The notes under the pieces: generated by a model
Databases searched by the model: none
Told to the model about the DNA's origin: nothing
Seen by the model: the letters and a program-made list of their open reading frames with translations, nothing else
Origin: a phage
Length of the DNA: 64,000 nucleotides
Reading direction: 5' to 3' (one strand)
Sequence record: NC_111505.1
In this document: in pieces, positions 653 through 11,286 of the stretch
How the letters are laid out: each line of letters begins with the position of its first letter
Numbering within the stretch: position 1 is the stretch's first letter
Made by a program: the position numbers and the translations under genes

Positions 653-682
653 ACAAAAATGCCCCACCCTTTCGGGTAGGGC
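653..682 (-). terminator. rho-independent terminator
   Basis: minus-strand hairpin GCCCTACCC-GAAA-GGGTGGGGC followed by ATTTTTG, just downstream of the SSB-like gene. Confidence 0.55.
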
Positions 683-697
683 TATGTTAACTAGATG

Positions 698-1924
698 TTA
701 AAAAGGTATGTCATCACAGAACTCGTACTGTGCCGGATTCTGATCCATCGGGTCATCTCCGTCATCATCTACAGGAGGGGCGTCTACAGTGTTTTGCTGT
801 GGAGTGACTTCCTGTTTGGCAGCTTGAGGTTCTTGATGCTCAGTAGTCCCAGCACCATTCTTGATCCAATCATACAACGGTTCAGCAAGATTAGTCAAGA
901 CATCTTTTGCCTCTGCAGTAATTGCTGCTGCAAAATCATCAACTTTCGTTTTCTTGTCAATACGGCGACAAGCGTTCAATACCGCATTACCAACACTGGC
1001 ACCTACTTCATCTTCAGTTCGATTGGTGGCTTGAGCGTACTCTTTCTTAAGCTCGATGGTGACCACGTGCAATGTTTTAGCCACATCTAAAGGGCTGTCA
1101 ACCTTGAATCCGCGATCTAGGATGATCTGCAACGCATTAATGCTGTGCCCCGTCTCTACACCAATAGGGTCGTAAGAGGATTTACGCTTTCCACCAGAAC
1201 CTTGAGTACCGTTCTCTGCTTTAGGCGGGTAGGCCTTGAAGCCGCTGATAATATTCCCGGTGTCTTTGTCAACAATAGCTGCAACACGACCGCCAACCAC
1301 CAGGTCTTTAAGCTGCTCATCAGAGACAACCATAGCACCTTCGCCAATCTTGTGGTCATTGACAGTAACCACGTTACCAACAATCTGAGTCACATCCCCA
1401 TAGATGCGTAAAACGTCCTGATTGGCATTCTGCTGGGGTTTCTGCTTCTGGCCTTGTGATTGTGTGCCTTGTTGCTGTTTTTGTTGCTGTGGAGCTGCTG
1501 GAGCCTCTCCTGCCCCCAGCTTAACCATTTTAGCCAATGAGCCTTTGTAGTAGGTCTTACCGTTATGCTCATTTGCCTTTAAAGGAATATTTACGATCCA
1601 TCCTGGCGTTACTGTTTCCCACTTGTCATCAATTTTAACAGAGACGGAATCTTGATGACCAGGTTTGAGCAATTTATCACCCATGCTGATCCAAACTTCT
1701 TCACCACCTTGAAGTAGGTTATCAGAAGAATCCAGTTCAGAAATCAGTAAGGAGATGGTGTGACTGGACTCGATTTTCTTACCTTGCCACACAGTGGTTT
1801 TAATACCTGTTGTAGGATCAGCACCTTTGATAGGTTTGATGCTGACACGTTTAATCATACCGTGAGCCAGTAAAACAGTTTCACGCGGATTCATCGGGTT
1901 GGCAAATTGTTGAATAACGCTCAT
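698..1924 (-). CDS. putative ssDNA-binding protein with E. coli SSB-like acidic C-terminal tip
   Basis: protein ends ...DDDGDDPMDQNPAQYEFCDDIPF (SSB tip is DDDIPF); Q-rich linker; start set at internal ATG 1924 because it overlaps the upstream stop (TAATG) and has AAGGAG upstream; N-terminal OB fold not verified. Confidence 0.5.
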   Translation of the reverse strand: MSVIQQFANPMNPRETVLLAHGMIKRVSIKPIKGADPTTGIKTTVWQGKKIESSHTISLLISELDSSDNLLQGGEEVWISMGDKLLKPGHQDSVSVKIDDKWETVTPGWIVNIPLKANEHNGKTYYKGSLAKMVKLGAGEAPAAPQQQKQQQGTQSQGQKQKPQQNANQDVLRIYGDVTQIVGNVVTVNDHKIGEGAMVVSDEQLKDLVVGGRVAAIVDKDTGNIISGFKAYPPKAENGTQGSGGKRKSSYDPIGVETGHSINALQIILDRGFKVDSPLDVAKTLHVVTIELKKEYAQATNRTEDEVGASVGNAVLNACRRIDKKTKVDDFAAAITAEAKDVLTNLAEPLYDWIKNGAGTTEHQEPQAAKQEVTPQQNTVDAPPVDDDGDDPMDQNPAQYEFCDDIPF

Positions 1925-2289
1925 TATTTGTCTCCTTGTTCTTCGTTGGTGTTTGCTGTGTGTGCAAACCCTGCTTGAATTAATTTGTCTTGCACTTGAG
2001 CCAACAGGCCCATTGCAAAACTTGTCGTCCCAGAAAGGGCCATTAGCATATCTCGTTGCTGAGCTACCCAACCTAAGGCATAATCCAAACGACGATATTT
2101 TTCTTCTTCGCGCAGAGCCTGAAATAATTGTTCAGCCTCTGGTTGTTGTGTGAGCTCCTGAAGTCTCCCCATGAAAGAAGAAAGCACTAGCAGAAGAGAC
2201 ACTTGATCTTTACTTAACCCTAAGAAAAATTCTTGAGGTTGTTCTTGCTCGTTCATCGCAACCGACGTTTGATCGTTCATTTGTTCCAT
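1924..2289 (-). CDS. hypothetical protein (Q/E-rich)
   Basis: 121-aa ORF; stop overlaps the next start. Confidence 0.45.
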   Translation of the reverse strand: MEQMNDQTSVAMNEQEQPQEFFLGLSKDQVSLLLVLSSFMGRLQELTQQPEAEQLFQALREEEKYRRLDYALGWVAQQRDMLMALSGTTSFAMGLLAQVQDKLIQAGFAHTANTNEEQGDK

Positions 2290-2372
2290 TATGGAATCTC
2301 CGATTTTATTTGAACAACATAGAAGGAGACACTATTTTAGCATCTCCTTCTGCAAATTACAATAGGTATTTG

Positions 2373-5480: not shown

Positions 5481-5756
5481 CAATAGTTCAGGTAGGTCGT
5501 TAAGCTACCCCGCACCATTACGTGCATAGCCATACGTTTTCACGTAGGATCGGACCATCTCATATTCCTATGATAAGCAACCACAGGAATCCTCCCATTT
5601 CGACCGCACTTGCTGGTCTACTTCCTTTCGGAATGGCCTCTGAGCGTTCGCTCTTTTGAGCGCTTCGTTGCGGATTACCTTGCCATAAGGTTTAGGCTTC
5701 CCGCAGTTAAAGAGGTTATTCGACATAGATTACTCTATGAAGCCACAATGTTATTT
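5481..5756 (-). ncRNA. candidate group I self-splicing intron (276 nt, no ORF) in the DNA polymerase gene
   Basis: exon 1 ends in U (CAU His); in-frame UAA three codons into the intron; guide-like UGUGG can pair with CCAU|A giving a G.U at the splice site; UGCGGGAA (P-like) can pair with AAUCCGCA (Q-like); hairpins with GUAA and GAAA loops; last intron nt is G; splicing rebuilds YYH|DEYQLQV. Confidence 0.6.
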
Positions 5757-8700
5757 ATGGTAATAAATAATACGACGAACACCTTCATCGTACCACCCAC
5801 GCTTCACCATTTGGTGGTGCATGAGTATCCCAACTAAGTCACACAACGATGCACCACCATTTTGTTGGTATGCATTAAGTAAAGAGTGTTTAGATCGAGT
5901 CCAGATGGCATGACCATCAAAAGAGTAGATAAACTTCTTACCTGTTGCTTCCCAGAATTTCTCCAGATCCTCTTTGCGCCCCTTAAGACCAGGGTTGGCA
6001 TCCCAAAGCGCATCGATTACCTTTTGCCCTAACTCTGGGGAGATATCCAGCATGTCTGCAACTTTATCTTTTTGTGCCCCGTACATAACACCGTACGTGA
6101 CAGGCTTACCATCGTTACGGGAAATCTCCTTGCCTGCTACAGAAGAGTAAGCTTTGGCGTTATTACAGTTACCGCACACTGCCACTTTACCATTCCTTCT
6201 CACAATGATTGCTCCAGAAGGGACGGTAACGCAATAAACCAAAGAACCACTCACCTCGACAGACTCTTTAGATAGTGTCAGCAACCCTGCTCTCTGTTTG
6301 CTACCAATCGTGATTCTGTGCTGTACGGAACGACCTTTTTTGTGAATCGCCACCGTATTATTCCGTAAACCACACTGAGTAGCCAGCGCAGACACAACCT
6401 CTACAGATTTCTTCCTGCACTCGGCCTGAGAGTAGTAGGCAACTTTTCCACCTTCGGAAGATACCCACCCGTCCCAGTTAGATAAAGAAGCTATAAACAG
6501 GTTTTTAGATTCTTTATCAAGGTCCATCAGGTTGTAGGTGAAATCCTTATTGCTGTCCAAAAACTCAAATACCCAGGACGGAACGTGGAATTGGAACCTT
6601 CTCGCCAGTAAGCCCCCTTTTGTGGTTTTCCCGCCCTGCTCTACATAACTAAGGCTTAGAGCAGAAAAAGTATCTAAAAGCGTTGCAACTTTTCTGCCCT
6701 TCCCGACCTGAATCCTGCACACGATGCTGCCGTCCTTATTTGTATGCAAGTGTCCATCATCGTGAATAGCAATAAGCAAATTAATCTGGGCAGGAGATAA
6801 GGTTGTATTCCCATAAAACTCTGCCGCATGGATAAACCTTCTTCCTGAATTAGACCCTTTACCTGCTTTCAGGTCTTTTGCCAAATCTTCAAACAATTTA
6901 TTGCTTCTGTGATCCACGGTCAGCATCCTGTGTTGATCTGTAACCATAAAATCCACACCGCTGTTGTGGAAATGATACATATCCCCACAATAACCACGCT
7001 TAACGTAATTTAATGGTGTAACAAGGTTCATCGACGAGGTGTTGTGATCGTACTGGAACACTTGTGTTCCCGGATCAAGATCTTCAAACCTCACCCACCC
7101 TTTCTCCGTGAGAATTTGTGTATCTCCTGAATAACAGTGTGCATCGCCGTTACTTACAACATCATAATACAAGCCGTTGTCGAACTCAAAGGCACCCCAA
7201 GCCCCGATAAGCTGCTCTAAGTTGGACCCGTCAATACCGATCTCAAAGTATCCTGGAGGAACGCCCCACAGACTACGCATCTCTTTACCCATAACCACTT
7301 TAGGAGATGGTTTAGGCATGTTTGCACAAATACTGTGTTTCTGTCTGGAAGTGTTTGTCAATCCAGAACTTTTAGCAGGAAGCTTGTGGTCAATCTTCAG
7401 ACGTGGATGATTAAGAAGACCAGTATCAACCTTATCCTCCTTGATTGGATCAAGTACCGATCTACGGTTTCGCAAGGATAACCACAAGACGATATCTTTA
7501 GCCATCTCTCCGTTCAACTTTTCAAGATTCGGACATAGGTGTCCAAACGTATCTTTCAGTTGCGGAGAAGTAATAAGCGCTCTGGCTTTTCTACGTATCT
7601 TCCCAAACACTTCCTTTTTAATCCTTTCTGAGTTAGGGAAGCTTCGGAACTTGTGCACGGTTGTCTGAAACTTAGCATCAGTTTTGTTCCAGAAGTTGAT
7701 AATTAGGTCACAATACTCTGACTCTAAAAGCTCGTCCATATATGCATATACTCGTGCATCAACATCAGCATCAGGCAGAGCTTTCTTCTTGCTGTCCTTG
7801 GTTACATCTTTAGTTCTCCACATTGTTGGGAGCCAACCAGCGCTGATCAAATATCGCTTAATATCGTCCTGGTTGCTGATCTTCATAGGTATCTTGCAGT
7901 CAGGCATCCGCTTCTGCTGCAGATCACTTATTGCCTGATCCATTAGTTCTTTAGGTAAAGGATGTGGTGTCGAGGTACCTTTAATATACCCCCTTAAGAA
8001 ATCAGCCATCTTATCGGGGTCTTTGCAGCCCATCTCTTCACACCATTTTATCCCCATTTTGCTGACATCTCCTGTGGAGGTAAAGGCTCGCTTAGGTGGG
8101 GCTTTGAATTCTAAAGCACTCATGTCCACAGGATAGCCAAGCTTGTCTTTTAACCATTTCCAACCGTTATTAGAGATTGTCCCATCTTGGTTAAACGGCT
8201 TTTCAGGGAACTTAGGCCGCTGAGACATTGATAGCTCTTTTAGAGGAAGTTGTGGTTCAACACGATCAGCGATCTCTTTCATCCACGCATCGCAGCGGTC
8301 ACGTAAAGCAATAGCCCCATCTATGTCGAAATACACACCCTGTCGAGCCTGCAGCTCCATCAGGAAATGCTGCAGCATGCCTCGGCGTAATGCATTCTTC
8401 CAGGTGATCTTCTTGAAGCCTTTCGGCTTCTCTTTGGCAGGATCGTACATAAAGTTCTGCATGTCAGATTTGCCGTAGAATACACCTTTTGATTCTGCTA
8501 CCAACTCCTTCCAGAGCAACTCCTGGATGATAACGTCCTCGAACACACGATCCACATACTTCCACAGCGGAAGCTCACGCCAGTCATCGATTTGAACTTT
8601 CTGGTTACCAAGGGCATAGCCCCATGCCATAAGGCCATGAGGCCCAACAGGTTGCATTTTCTTGGTAACTGGATTGAATACTGCGTCCGGACAACCTTTT

Positions 8701-9149
8701 GGCAAAGGGCGGTCAGGCCACAAGATTCGACTCATCGCCAACGTATCAAATAGATTAACTTGGTGGTCGTTGATAGTCCCCATGCATTTAGGATCACGGA
8801 ACATATCAAAATGAACACCGGATAATCTTTCCATCAGCATAAAGTCATAGCTGTAGCAGTTATGACAGTTCAAAGCCGTAGGTGACCAGTCTGAATTGCC
8901 TGTAAGCCAGCCTTCCAACTCTGAAAAATCTGCTATGCGAGCCTCAAAATCTTTATAAAGAGTTTTCTTTGCCAGAATAAAGTTCTTAGCCTTTTCTACA
9001 TCCTCTTCAGAGTAGTGTGTGCGGTCATTTAGAGGAAGGAACAGCATAAAACGGTTCTTATTCAGCTCTTTAAACAAACCGCAGTGATAATAAAGATCTG
9101 GATCTTCCAAAAGCCCGGAGGCCTCCAAGTCGAACGACCACATGCTCAT
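5757..9149 (-). CDS. DNA polymerase, family A (T7-like), exon 1 with embedded intein
   Basis: N-terminal exonuclease motif SFDLEASGL...HCG (T7 gp5-like); motif A IDGSNLEQLIGA; motif B RNDGKPVTYGVMYG; AAGGAG 8 nt upstream of ATG 9149; ORF stops 2 codons after the His of motif C. Confidence 0.85.
6168..7136 (-). mobile_element. intein (323 aa) with LAGLIDADG-type homing endonuclease domain, inside DNA polymerase
   Basis: inserted after GDAH between motifs A and B; block A CYSGDTQIL; block B TDQH; LAGLIDADG-like LLIAIHDDGH and FIASLSNWDGW; ends ...VAVCGN followed by Cys+1 (penultimate Gly, not His); flanking extein aligns with T7 NGDIHT. Confidence 0.75.
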
Positions 9150-9207: not shown

Positions 9208-11286
9208 TTAAAAAGGTGTTTCATCATCCTCAAAACCAGGGACCTGGTCAGAGGATGGATCATCGTACTGGAGGTCTTCCTGCGTGTCAACAGGCTTAAC
9301 AGTAGGAGTTACAACCTTATCAGCCACAACCTTGCCCATAGGTGTTTCTACAACTGCATGCTCCTGATCCTCAAACATAGCCTGAGGTCTCCAAACAACC
9401 TCCCCACCTTCTCCGTCTGTAAACATTTGCATTTCTTTGTCCCAGTACCAATTACTGGCATCATGGAACTTACCTGTGTGCGGGTCCATAACCAAAGTGT
9501 CAGCAATACCTAGAGTTTTTGCTGGACGGTTTTTAAGACCTACCAGACGGACACGTCCACGAGAACGATCCACCATTTCTTCGGCCTCGACACCTATGAC
9601 TACCCAACTCAACTGTTCAAGCCCCGCCGATCCTCGCAAATTCTCTTTTCGCACAGGATACCAGAAAGGTAACGGGTTACCATCCTTGTCCTTAGGAGGC
9701 ACAATCTCTGTACGTTTGAGGTGAGCGATCACCAAGATAAACACGTTAAACTGCTTACAAAACGCAGCCAGCTGAGTCATAGCCATGTCCAGTTCTTTTC
9801 GCTCATCCTTAACATTAAGCCCTGAAATTACCATGGACAGGTGATCCAGCACAATATAACGGCAATGGTACAGGCAAACCATTTGCTTAAGCTTGGTAAT
9901 CAACTCATCCACCGGAATAGACCCGAAATGTTTGAACACTTTGATTTTTCCAGCTTTTGCCCATGATTGGTGAATCTCTGCGTGTTCTTGATCAGTTAAA
10001 AACTGGCTAGGATCTTCAACAAACTCTTTAACATCAAACCCTAACTGGTTTGCATACAAGGAGTTAATTGCTTCCTCTGGGTCCTCCTCAAGATGGATCA
10101 TACATAGACGATCATCCTCTTCATAGTCATCAGCCTTCGGGCATGTCGGGTCCATTAGGTATCTTGCAATACAGTGTTCCAGTTTTTTAGCTACGGTTGT
10201 TTTACCACCACCTGATGGACCTGTAAGCATTACTAGTGTCCCTTTGTGCAAGCCTTTTAGCATTTTTTGCAGTTTTGGGAACTCTGCGCTGATATCTACC
10301 CCGTTGGAAGTCTTTTTCCGCAAAGACTCGATAGAGAAGTCTTCTAAATCCGACACCGCATCAGGCACATATTTAACAGGATGCCGGAACATGTTGACAA
10401 TATCTTCCAGCTTTTTAGCCTTCAGCATGTCTCGGATATCTTTTACACCGTCAGGGTCATTTACTTCACCAGGGTATTCTACGTGGTAAACGTTATCAGC
10501 CATCAAAAATGCTGCGATATTGTGCGTGGCCTCAACACCTTTAATGACGTGTTTTTGCTTCTCTACCTCGTTAGCTGCATCGTTATCCATTGCCAGCACA
10601 ACTGTTCCATAGCTACGGATAAACTTCTCATTGTTTGCAAAAGTATCTACTGCGTTTGCACATCCACAGTTAATTCCAACAAAAGGTAGGCAGGGTTTTC
10701 CTGCCAGATCACCACCGTTTATAACTGCGTCGATCCCGTCCTGGACCTCTTTAGCCCACTGCTTCACCTTTGCCGGGGCTTTAGCGTTGGTGAGAATCCC
10801 TTTTACCTGTATCTGATATGCAGCCTGCCATGCTGCAATAACATCGCCTTCCCCCTCACAAACGTTAATTTGCTTACGGTTGTTGGAAGATGCACACAGC
10901 TTTTGCCCAAACATCTGGGAGTTGGCCTTTACTATGCCAACAACGGAGAAATGGCCCCTTTGCTCTTTAGGAATCGTCCAGTCACGCTTTTTGAAACCGG
11001 ACAGATTTCCGTAGCGGTCGTAATATGGGAAATATGTTGCAGTGACTGTCACACCGTCTTCTTGGGATAATGCTGATCGCACACCAAAATATTGTGCAGC
11101 CATCAGACCGATATTTTGTTGTGGGACAGGGACAATTTTAGTATTTTCTAAAACAGTCTCTACAGTTTCAACTTCTTTTTCATCACGATAGTCTCGTTTC
11201 ACACTTCCCCCACTTTTATACTTAGTTGCTTTCGGGTTTGGCTCACCGAAACGGTTGTATGCAGATGCCATGAATTTACTTCCCAT
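9208..11286 (-). CDS. DNA primase-helicase (TOPRIM primase + DnaB/gp4-like helicase)
   Basis: TOPRIM VCEGEGD and LAMDNDAAN; Walker A GPSGGGKTT; Walker B-like IVLDHLSM; 692 aa. Confidence 0.7.
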   Translation of the reverse strand: MGSKFMASAYNRFGEPNPKATKYKSGGSVKRDYRDEKEVETVETVLENTKIVPVPQQNIGLMAAQYFGVRSALSQEDGVTVTATYFPYYDRYGNLSGFKKRDWTIPKEQRGHFSVVGIVKANSQMFGQKLCASSNNRKQINVCEGEGDVIAAWQAAYQIQVKGILTNAKAPAKVKQWAKEVQDGIDAVINGGDLAGKPCLPFVGINCGCANAVDTFANNEKFIRSYGTVVLAMDNDAANEVEKQKHVIKGVEATHNIAAFLMADNVYHVEYPGEVNDPDGVKDIRDMLKAKKLEDIVNMFRHPVKYVPDAVSDLEDFSIESLRKKTSNGVDISAEFPKLQKMLKGLHKGTLVMLTGPSGGGKTTVAKKLEHCIARYLMDPTCPKADDYEEDDRLCMIHLEEDPEEAINSLYANQLGFDVKEFVEDPSQFLTDQEHAEIHQSWAKAGKIKVFKHFGSIPVDELITKLKQMVCLYHCRYIVLDHLSMVISGLNVKDERKELDMAMTQLAAFCKQFNVFILVIAHLKRTEIVPPKDKDGNPLPFWYPVRKENLRGSAGLEQLSWVVIGVEAEEMVDRSRGRVRLVGLKNRPAKTLGIADTLVMDPHTGKFHDASNWYWDKEMQMFTDGEGGEVVWRPQAMFEDQEHAVVETPMGKVVADKVVTPTVKPVDTQEDLQYDDPSSDQVPGFEDDETPF

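Follow-up and report, generated by a model that had tools for sequence, protein, structure and literature searches.

The window, a 64,000-nucleotide stretch of phage DNA (NC_111505.1) taken at its full length, comes from a Vequintavirus, an rV5/FV3-like myovirus of E. coli, with 97% identity to phage FV3 over the first 6 kb. These 6 kb are matched by 134 phage records, 110 of the 134 over at least 80% of the stretch. Positions 698..1924 correspond to exactly one open reading frame on the minus strand, whose stop codon occupies 698..700. The translated product (MSVIQQ...NPAQYEFCDDIPF) is 408 aa long and terminates in ...YEFCDDIPF. As regards the start site, the homologs all begin with MSV or MGL at the equivalent position. 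In the sequence TAATG, the ATG shares bases with the stop codon of the ORF upstream, and the hairpin that follows the gene was rated as strongly terminator-like. The gene and the signals surrounding it are as follows.

698..1924, minus strand: SSB-like coding sequence, 408 aa plus stop, ortholog of FV3_00195, rV5 ORF214 and Bas52_0087
1931..1937, minus strand: Shine-Dalgarno sequence AAGGAGA, 6 nt 5' of the ATG, read from the sequence
1924..2289, minus strand: upstream ORF of 121 aa, PHROG 7310 (function unknown), translationally coupled to the SSB-like gene
2362..2334 and 2351..2321: promoter-like site and terminator-like hairpin, respectively, just 5' of the 121-aa ORF
661..682, minus strand: intrinsic-terminator-like hairpin GCCCTACCC-GAAA-GGGTGGGGC followed by a T run, 15 nt past the stop codon

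The gene is annotated as 'hypothetical protein' in FV3 (FV3_00195), rV5 (ORF214) and nearly all relatives; some GenBank records name homologs SSB, the phi92-like proteins among them. Of the GenBank records that match the first 6 kb, sixteen are entered as 'Campylobacter phage' with C. jejuni as the host (MG065646, MG065647, MG065655, MG065659 and others). Among the matches listed, these records are about 93% identical to the window phage, and their host label looks doubtful. The idea that the coupled upstream ORF is a conserved partner of the SSB-like gene was dropped, because the ORF preceding the phi92-like homolog is not similar to it; from lineage to lineage, the upstream ORFs are likewise unlike one another. 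In a distant relative (L010, 7837..8001), the coupled upstream ORF carries a T7 gp5.9-like domain (PF25708).

The fold of the protein was predicted with AlphaFold2 from a 24-sequence alignment, and the chain can be divided into the following parts.

1508..1924, minus strand: domain 1, residues 1-139, predicted SSB-type OB fold with hairpin extensions, the proposed ssDNA-binding module
1418..1507, minus strand: Q-rich disordered linker, residues 140-169, pLDDT <50, length differing among homologs
1217..1417, minus strand: domain 2, residues 170-236, predicted small five-stranded barrel, b1-b2-b3-helix-b4-b5 (IF1/S1-like OB)
1178..1216, minus strand: G/K-rich disordered linker, residues 237-249, pLDDT <50
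851..1177, minus strand: domain 3, residues 250-358, predicted four-helix bundle, the most conserved folded part
725..850, minus strand: disordered acidic P/Q-rich tail, residues 359-400, delimited by pLDDT <50 and composition
701..724, minus strand: C-terminal tip EFCDDIPF, residues 401-408, SSB-Ct-like

The original prediction of an SSB-like protein had named an OB fold in the N-terminal part as the feature to look for, and an SSB-type OB fold is indeed predicted within residues 1-139. This domain is beta-rich in the model (pLDDT 80-90), and its best structural matches are SSBs. The matches that Foldseek returned over 65-71 columns, namely IF1, RPA14 and the proteasome Rpt OB (probability 0.97-1.0), are given to domain 2 by length only; the model residues aligned by structural matches were not reported, and the choice between domain 1 and domain 2 rests on the aligned length. 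The long additional domain of the original prediction must be revised in one respect. The extra body and the Q-rich linker are present (13 of the 32 residues at 141-172 are Q), but the body comprises two domains, the barrel at 170-236 and the four-helix bundle at 250-358. Domain 2 occurs in only about one quarter of the family representatives (occupancy ~0.25) and is missing from P0056, P0057 and the phi92-like homologs. Domain 3 is modelled with pLDDT >90 (91.8 with a pTM of 0.84 when modelled alone), and an informative structural match to the bundle at 250-358 was not found. It contains D252, G255, G259, H260, N263, G308 and G312, with D252 placed where helix 1 begins and Y351 close to the end of helix 4. 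A metal site in this domain was considered since H260, N263 and H286 are invariant among close homologs, and was rejected: in the wider family only 70-75% of members retain H260 and N263 and <70% retain H286, and the fold offers no support.

The final 50 residues contain 13 acidic residues and 1 basic residue, residues 359-408 have pLDDT <50, and DDIPF stands directly before the stop codon. Over its last eight residues, EFCDDIPF is identical to the E. coli SSB-Ct, DFDDDIPF, at six positions. From the amino-acid frequencies of the window, the chance of DDIPF at a given C-terminus is ~4e-7, or ~1e-4 per genome of 250 genes. A PDB sequence search with the family profile returned the E. coli SSB tail as the only significant-looking match. 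The [IV]PF tip is kept in all 56 full-length close homologs, being terminal in 42 and followed by an extension of 14-16 aa in the remaining 14. More widely, 103 of the 146 representatives (50% identity) end in [IVLM]PF, and in an alignment of 137 of these 146, P407 is kept in 93% and F408 in 95%. Several members end in EPPMDFDDDIPF or in PPMDFDDDIPF, the latter being the last 11 residues of E. coli SSB. Across the 249 clusters of the family, the linkers vary freely and the tail and tip are conserved. The claim that the C-terminus matches the SSB tip after an acidic stretch is thus confirmed, and the match extends to the homologs. Because [IVL]PF is kept across the family, the tip is ancestral and not a recent loan from the host. 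The interpretation offered with the original prediction, a true phage SSB or a protein that borrows the docking peptide of the host, is partly supported.

The family itself is PHROG 4477 (function unknown), which the protein matches over its full length (E 1.1e-171, residues 1-408 against profile positions 1-393 of 393); the phi92-like and two-domain homologs match it as well. An exhaustive profile search of 1.84 billion proteins yielded the 249 clusters (50% identity, E up to 1e-3). The family is small, and its members are phage-encoded in every context examined. The commoner and more diverse architecture, to which the phi92-like proteins belong, is ~260-300 aa long and comprises the OB domain, the helical bundle and the tail. 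The second, of ~350-420 aa, has the extra small barrel; it accounts for about a quarter of the representatives and includes the window protein. Besides the tip, the best-conserved positions are the glycines of the OB domain and D252, G255, G259, H260, N263, G308, G312 and A318 in bundle helices 1 and 3, which carry two GxxxG-like motifs. Such motifs are typically associated with tight helix packing.

Sequence comparison beyond the tip was negative. The protein has no match in Pfam (E up to 1) or NCBIfam, and the PDB sequence search found no match for the body, only for the tail. A PF00436 match was not found, and with hhalign domain 1 scored a probability of 13% against the T1-like phage SSB and 0.3% against E. 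coli SSB. Profile-profile comparison of domain 1 and of domain 2 with the T1-like phage SSB alignment and with E. coli SSB did not reveal homology, the T1-like set being a weak stand-in for canonical SSB, as the 'ssb' of morffagbaw is a divergent T1-like SSB and the set mostly lacks a PF00436 match. A relationship between domains 1 and 2 was not detectable by profile-profile comparison either. A phmmer search with T7 gp2.5 did not match the window protein, and Foldseek gave weak similarity (E 0.08-0.23) to the gp2.5-like DUF2815 structures 4klk and 4jg2.

The SSB-like gene lies 3.8 kb downstream of the genes for PolA (5751..9149) and a primase/helicase (9208..11286) on the same strand, with small ORFs between. 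The order primase/helicase, PolA, small ORFs and SSB-like gene recurs around two distant two-domain relatives, both on metagenomic phage contigs (L010, L011), and in a phi92-like phage (L003) the homolog lies ~1.7 kb downstream of the DNA polymerase gene. The whole Bas52 genome, which is carefully annotated, has annotations for polymerase, primase/helicase, helicase, ligase, exonucleases and ribonucleotide reductases, with no SSB among them. When all ORFs of Bas52 and of the window were searched by phmmer with E. coli SSB, T4 gp32, T7 gp2.5 and a T1-like SSB, only the SSB-like gene was hit, via its tail. In these searches, no other SSB candidate came up in the genome. The primase/helicase, a protein of 692 aa with a DnaB-type helicase domain, adds one more feature to the replication module.

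9208..9234, minus strand: C-terminal tail of the primase/helicase, ...PGFEDDETPF plus stop, a second acidic-PF tip

An acidic tail with a terminal Phe is thus common to the SSB-like protein (...EFCDDIPF) and the primase/helicase (...FEDDETPF) of one phage. The tail of the Bas52 primase/helicase is identical to that of the window, and the primase/helicase of the Seunavirus KE23 ends in ...DMDDDTPF. The PolA gene (5751..9149, minus strand) shows a peculiarity of its own, encoding 1132 aa here vs 809 aa in FV3. The difference is an in-frame insert of 323 aa (C672...N994, then C995; window 6168..7136, minus strand) that begins with CYSGDTQILT, has a weak Hint-domain match and is flanked by sequence 95-99% identical to FV3; it probably represents an intein that contains a homing endonuclease.

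The tip is also the place at which related phages differ. In 14 of the 56 full-length close homologs and in rV5, 14-16 extra residues of the form APIGLQYGRSRIYAL follow ...IPF, so that the capped tip reads ...DDIPFAPVGLQYGKSRIHAL. The extension of 15 residues is found in rV5, in ~40% of the Vequintavirus records and in every phi92-like homolog sampled. As these phages do without a free C-terminal Phe, it cannot be essential to them. Comparison with rV5 shows where the extension comes from: the two sequences stay collinear as far as the Phe codon and are so once more from the terminator on, with ~640 bp inserted in rV5 exactly between these points, the window representing the empty site. Bas51/EmilHeitz is naturally capped like rV5, and Bas52 and FV3 are uncapped. 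In rV5 the last 29 nt of the extended SSB-like gene overlap the start of ORF213, an 'endonuclease VII' (PHROG 1035). The cassette and its empty counterpart have the following positions.

L005, 2026..2667: cassette in rV5
L006, 1525..1984: cassette
L012, 1525..2005: cassette
Window, 698..700: empty site

The same junction lies after the Phe codon of the T1-like phage SSB and of the Seunavirus primase/helicase. The endonuclease of the cassette is free-standing, belongs to PHROG 1035 or 2340 and is annotated as 'endonuclease VII' or, by BASEL, as 'putative homing endonuclease'. To genes ending in ..DDxPF the cassette adds a tail of 15 aa (APIGLQYG...), in which the codons for I-G-L-Q-Y-G, ATAGGAyTGCAATATGG, also supply, in another frame, the ribosome-binding site and start ATG of the endonuclease. 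These residues are conserved because their codons carry these signals. The extension was also considered as a second docking motif, a reading that was set aside because the extension is better explained as the 5' end of the endonuclease cassette. A tblastn search with tip plus extension found 233 phage records, from Vequintavirinae and phi92-like, T1-like, lambdoid, Vibrio, Pseudomonas and Aeromonas phages, and some of the matches lie under the SSBs of lambdoid and Vibrio phages. The rV5-type cassette is present after the SSB-like gene in 52 records, all of which are labelled Escherichia, Shigella or 'Campylobacter'. In the phi92-like phage ESCO32 (L003, 3463..3510), the extension APIGLQYGRNFLHCF follows DDDIPF, and a terminator and a methyltransferase gene come next, without an endonuclease. 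Judging from this arrangement, the phi92-like extension looks like the footprint of a lost cassette, and the tip there would then be permanently capped. An earlier description of an endonuclease cassette at ssb tips was not found in the literature searched.

The closest characterized relative of the window protein is Bas52_0087 (QXV84166.1) of Escherichia phage RudolfGeigy/Bas52, with 393 of 408 residues identical (96%). The two genes have equal length, the same genomic position and the same neighbours. The 15 substitutions fall mostly in the tail, and the tip of Bas52_0087 reads SFDDDIPF vs EFCDDIPF in the window, which has Cys at -6. An April 2026 preprint described Bas52_0087 as the 'SSB-like' trigger of the reverse-transcriptase defence DRT10 (UG17), with two OB folds, a disordered C-terminus and an SSB-like C-tip (bioRxiv 10.64898/2026.04.29.721553). 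The Bas52 mutants found to escape DRT10 were all missense and carried D252V or Y351C in this protein, wild-type Bas52_0087 supplied in trans strengthened the defence, and the protein expressed alone neither harmed E. coli nor triggered DRT10 (bioRxiv 10.64898/2026.04.29.721553). Overexpression of ExoI (SbcB) weakened the defence, and the authors proposed competition with SbcB (bioRxiv 10.64898/2026.04.29.721553). Triggering of DRT10 during infection has been reported for Bas52 only. The window protein has both D252 and Y351, each located in the helical bundle. An SSB-like protein with a host-type tip is thus already published as a prediction for a 96%-identical ortholog; since Bas52_0087 was described in the same terms, the idea is essentially not new, and the window adds an ortholog, not a discovery.

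The SSB-like reading is well supported in silico, and the protein is probably the phage's own replicative SSB, drawn from the phage-specific family PHROG 4477. Beside the observed sequence features, predicted folds, gene context, conservation and identity with Bas52_0087, we infer ssDNA binding, oligomerisation and every binding partner in the mechanism proposed here. The N-terminal SSB-type OB domain would bind ssDNA exposed by the phage primase/helicase and PolA, and the second small OB of rV5-like phages may add contacts. The four-helix bundle would serve as a module for self-association or for holding a partner, and as the surface on which DRT10 depends. The long disordered acidic tail would display ...DDIPF with a free C-terminal Phe, which could dock in pockets of the SSB-Ct type on host SSB-interacting proteins (e.g. 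ExoI), on the phage PolA, or on both. Such pockets offer the terminal Phe a hydrophobic cavity, its alpha-carboxyl a basic lip and the Asp residues a basic ridge (PMC10164576).

This organization resembles the bacterial SSB (E. coli, PF00436) in its N-terminal OB fold, disordered P/Q/G-rich linker and acidic tip ending in DDIPF. It differs in having no detectable sequence homology beyond the tip, in its length (408 aa vs 178) and in the second small OB and four-helix bundle inserted between OB and tail. E. coli SSB tetramerises via its OB domain; in the window protein, the candidate for self-association is a helical domain apart from the OB. Phage-encoded proteins with a host-type tip are also known from T1-like (Drexlerviridae) and lambdoid phages, whose SSBs end in DFDDDIPF and, in some genomes, have the same endonuclease cassette after the Phe codon. 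Those SSBs, however, are ~140-165 aa long, with a single OB and no helical domain, and domain 1 is dissimilar to them in sequence. The T1-like SSBs (L006, 1081..1572; P0204-P0323), which end in DFDDDIPF, almost all lack a precomputed Pfam SSB match; they form another divergent group of SSBs with the host-type tip.

The partner of the tip is a separate question, and it brings T7 into the comparison. Like T7 with gp2.5 and gp4, the phage has its own PolA and primase/helicase, and its SSB-like protein and primase/helicase both end in an acidic run and Phe. It is possible, though we lean against it, that the acidic-PF tip is a T7-style replisome handle that chiefly docks the phage PolA and is common to the SSB-like protein and the primase/helicase, the likeness to host SSB being secondary; the identity of the protein as an SSB is not disputed by this reading. 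The ETPF and DTPF ends of the primase/helicases in the window, Bas52 and KE23 speak for it, as does a replication module that encodes both PolA and a gp4-like primase/helicase. By analogy, T7 gp5, which is of the PolA type, has a basic patch that takes up the acidic Phe-terminated tails of gp2.5 and gp4: PDB 6P7E shows the DTDF peptide of gp4 on gp5, and the tail of gp2.5 attaches to the front basic patch (PMC12339929). However, the tails here copy the bacterial SSB-Ct (..DDxPF) and not the T7 form (..DxDF), similarity to the gp2.5 sequence was not found, and the primase/helicases of the two distant relatives (L010, L011) lack an acidic-PF tail. Many family members moreover copy the E. coli SSB-Ct over 11-12 residues (PPMDFDDDIPF), beyond 'acidic plus Phe', which points to pockets that read the full SSB-Ct. 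Host SSB-interacting proteins and the phage PolA are not mutually exclusive as partners. A tentative joint reading, which we regard as somewhat speculative, would take DD(I/T)PF as a T7-style handle with PolA as a partner beside the host SSB partners, and the DNA encoding the tip as a homing site of free-standing endonucleases. On the same doubtful footing, these endonucleases would insert after the final Phe codon of unrelated genes (the SSB family, T1-like and lambdoid SSBs, primase/helicases) and so cap the tip.

Two further explanations depart from a replicative SSB. The protein might act mainly as a decoy or hijacker, competing with host SSB for ExoI, RecQ, PriA, chi and other SSB-interacting proteins, with ssDNA coating secondary or absent; it would then recruit host SSB partners to phage DNA or exclude them, for instance shielding phage ssDNA ends from ExoI. 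The match of the tip to SSB-Ct, whose recognition needs the terminal Phe, the alpha-carboxyl and the Asp residues (PMC10164576), is consistent with such a role, as is the modulation of the DRT10 response by ExoI (SbcB) dosage, together with the SbcB competition proposed by the preprint authors (bioRxiv 10.64898/2026.04.29.721553). On the other hand, a strong titrator of essential SSB partners would be expected to affect E. coli viability, which Bas52_0087 alone did not, and a pure decoy would need neither a conserved OB domain nor a position in the replication module. We consider the decoy reading unlikely as a main function, and a pure decoy role is less likely because expression is harmless, the DRT10 escape mutations lie in the helical domain and avoid the tip, and natural alleles with a capped tip are common. 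Quite improbable, in our view, is that the protein is no SSB at all but another OB-containing accessory of replication or recombination, such as a helicase loader, a mediator of the RecO/PriB type or an annealing protein, which the tip would seat beside host SSB partners on ssDNA.

The SSB tip is a hub that recruits ~20 host genome-maintenance proteins, and a phage protein carrying this tip could reroute or starve them. Phage SSBs recurrently trigger bacterial immunity, as in Retron-Eco8, Hachiman and now DRT10. To the published description of the ortholog, the present analysis adds a picture of the PHROG 4477 family, with an OB domain, an optional second OB, a conserved helical bundle and an ancestral tip, and further the second tip, at the end of the primase/helicase, and the naturally occurring alleles, capped or uncapped, that a mobile endonuclease has produced. 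If the reading of the cassette is true, nature provides matched phages with free and with capped tips, in which the role of the free SSB tip in the phage and in DRT10 sensing may be tested.
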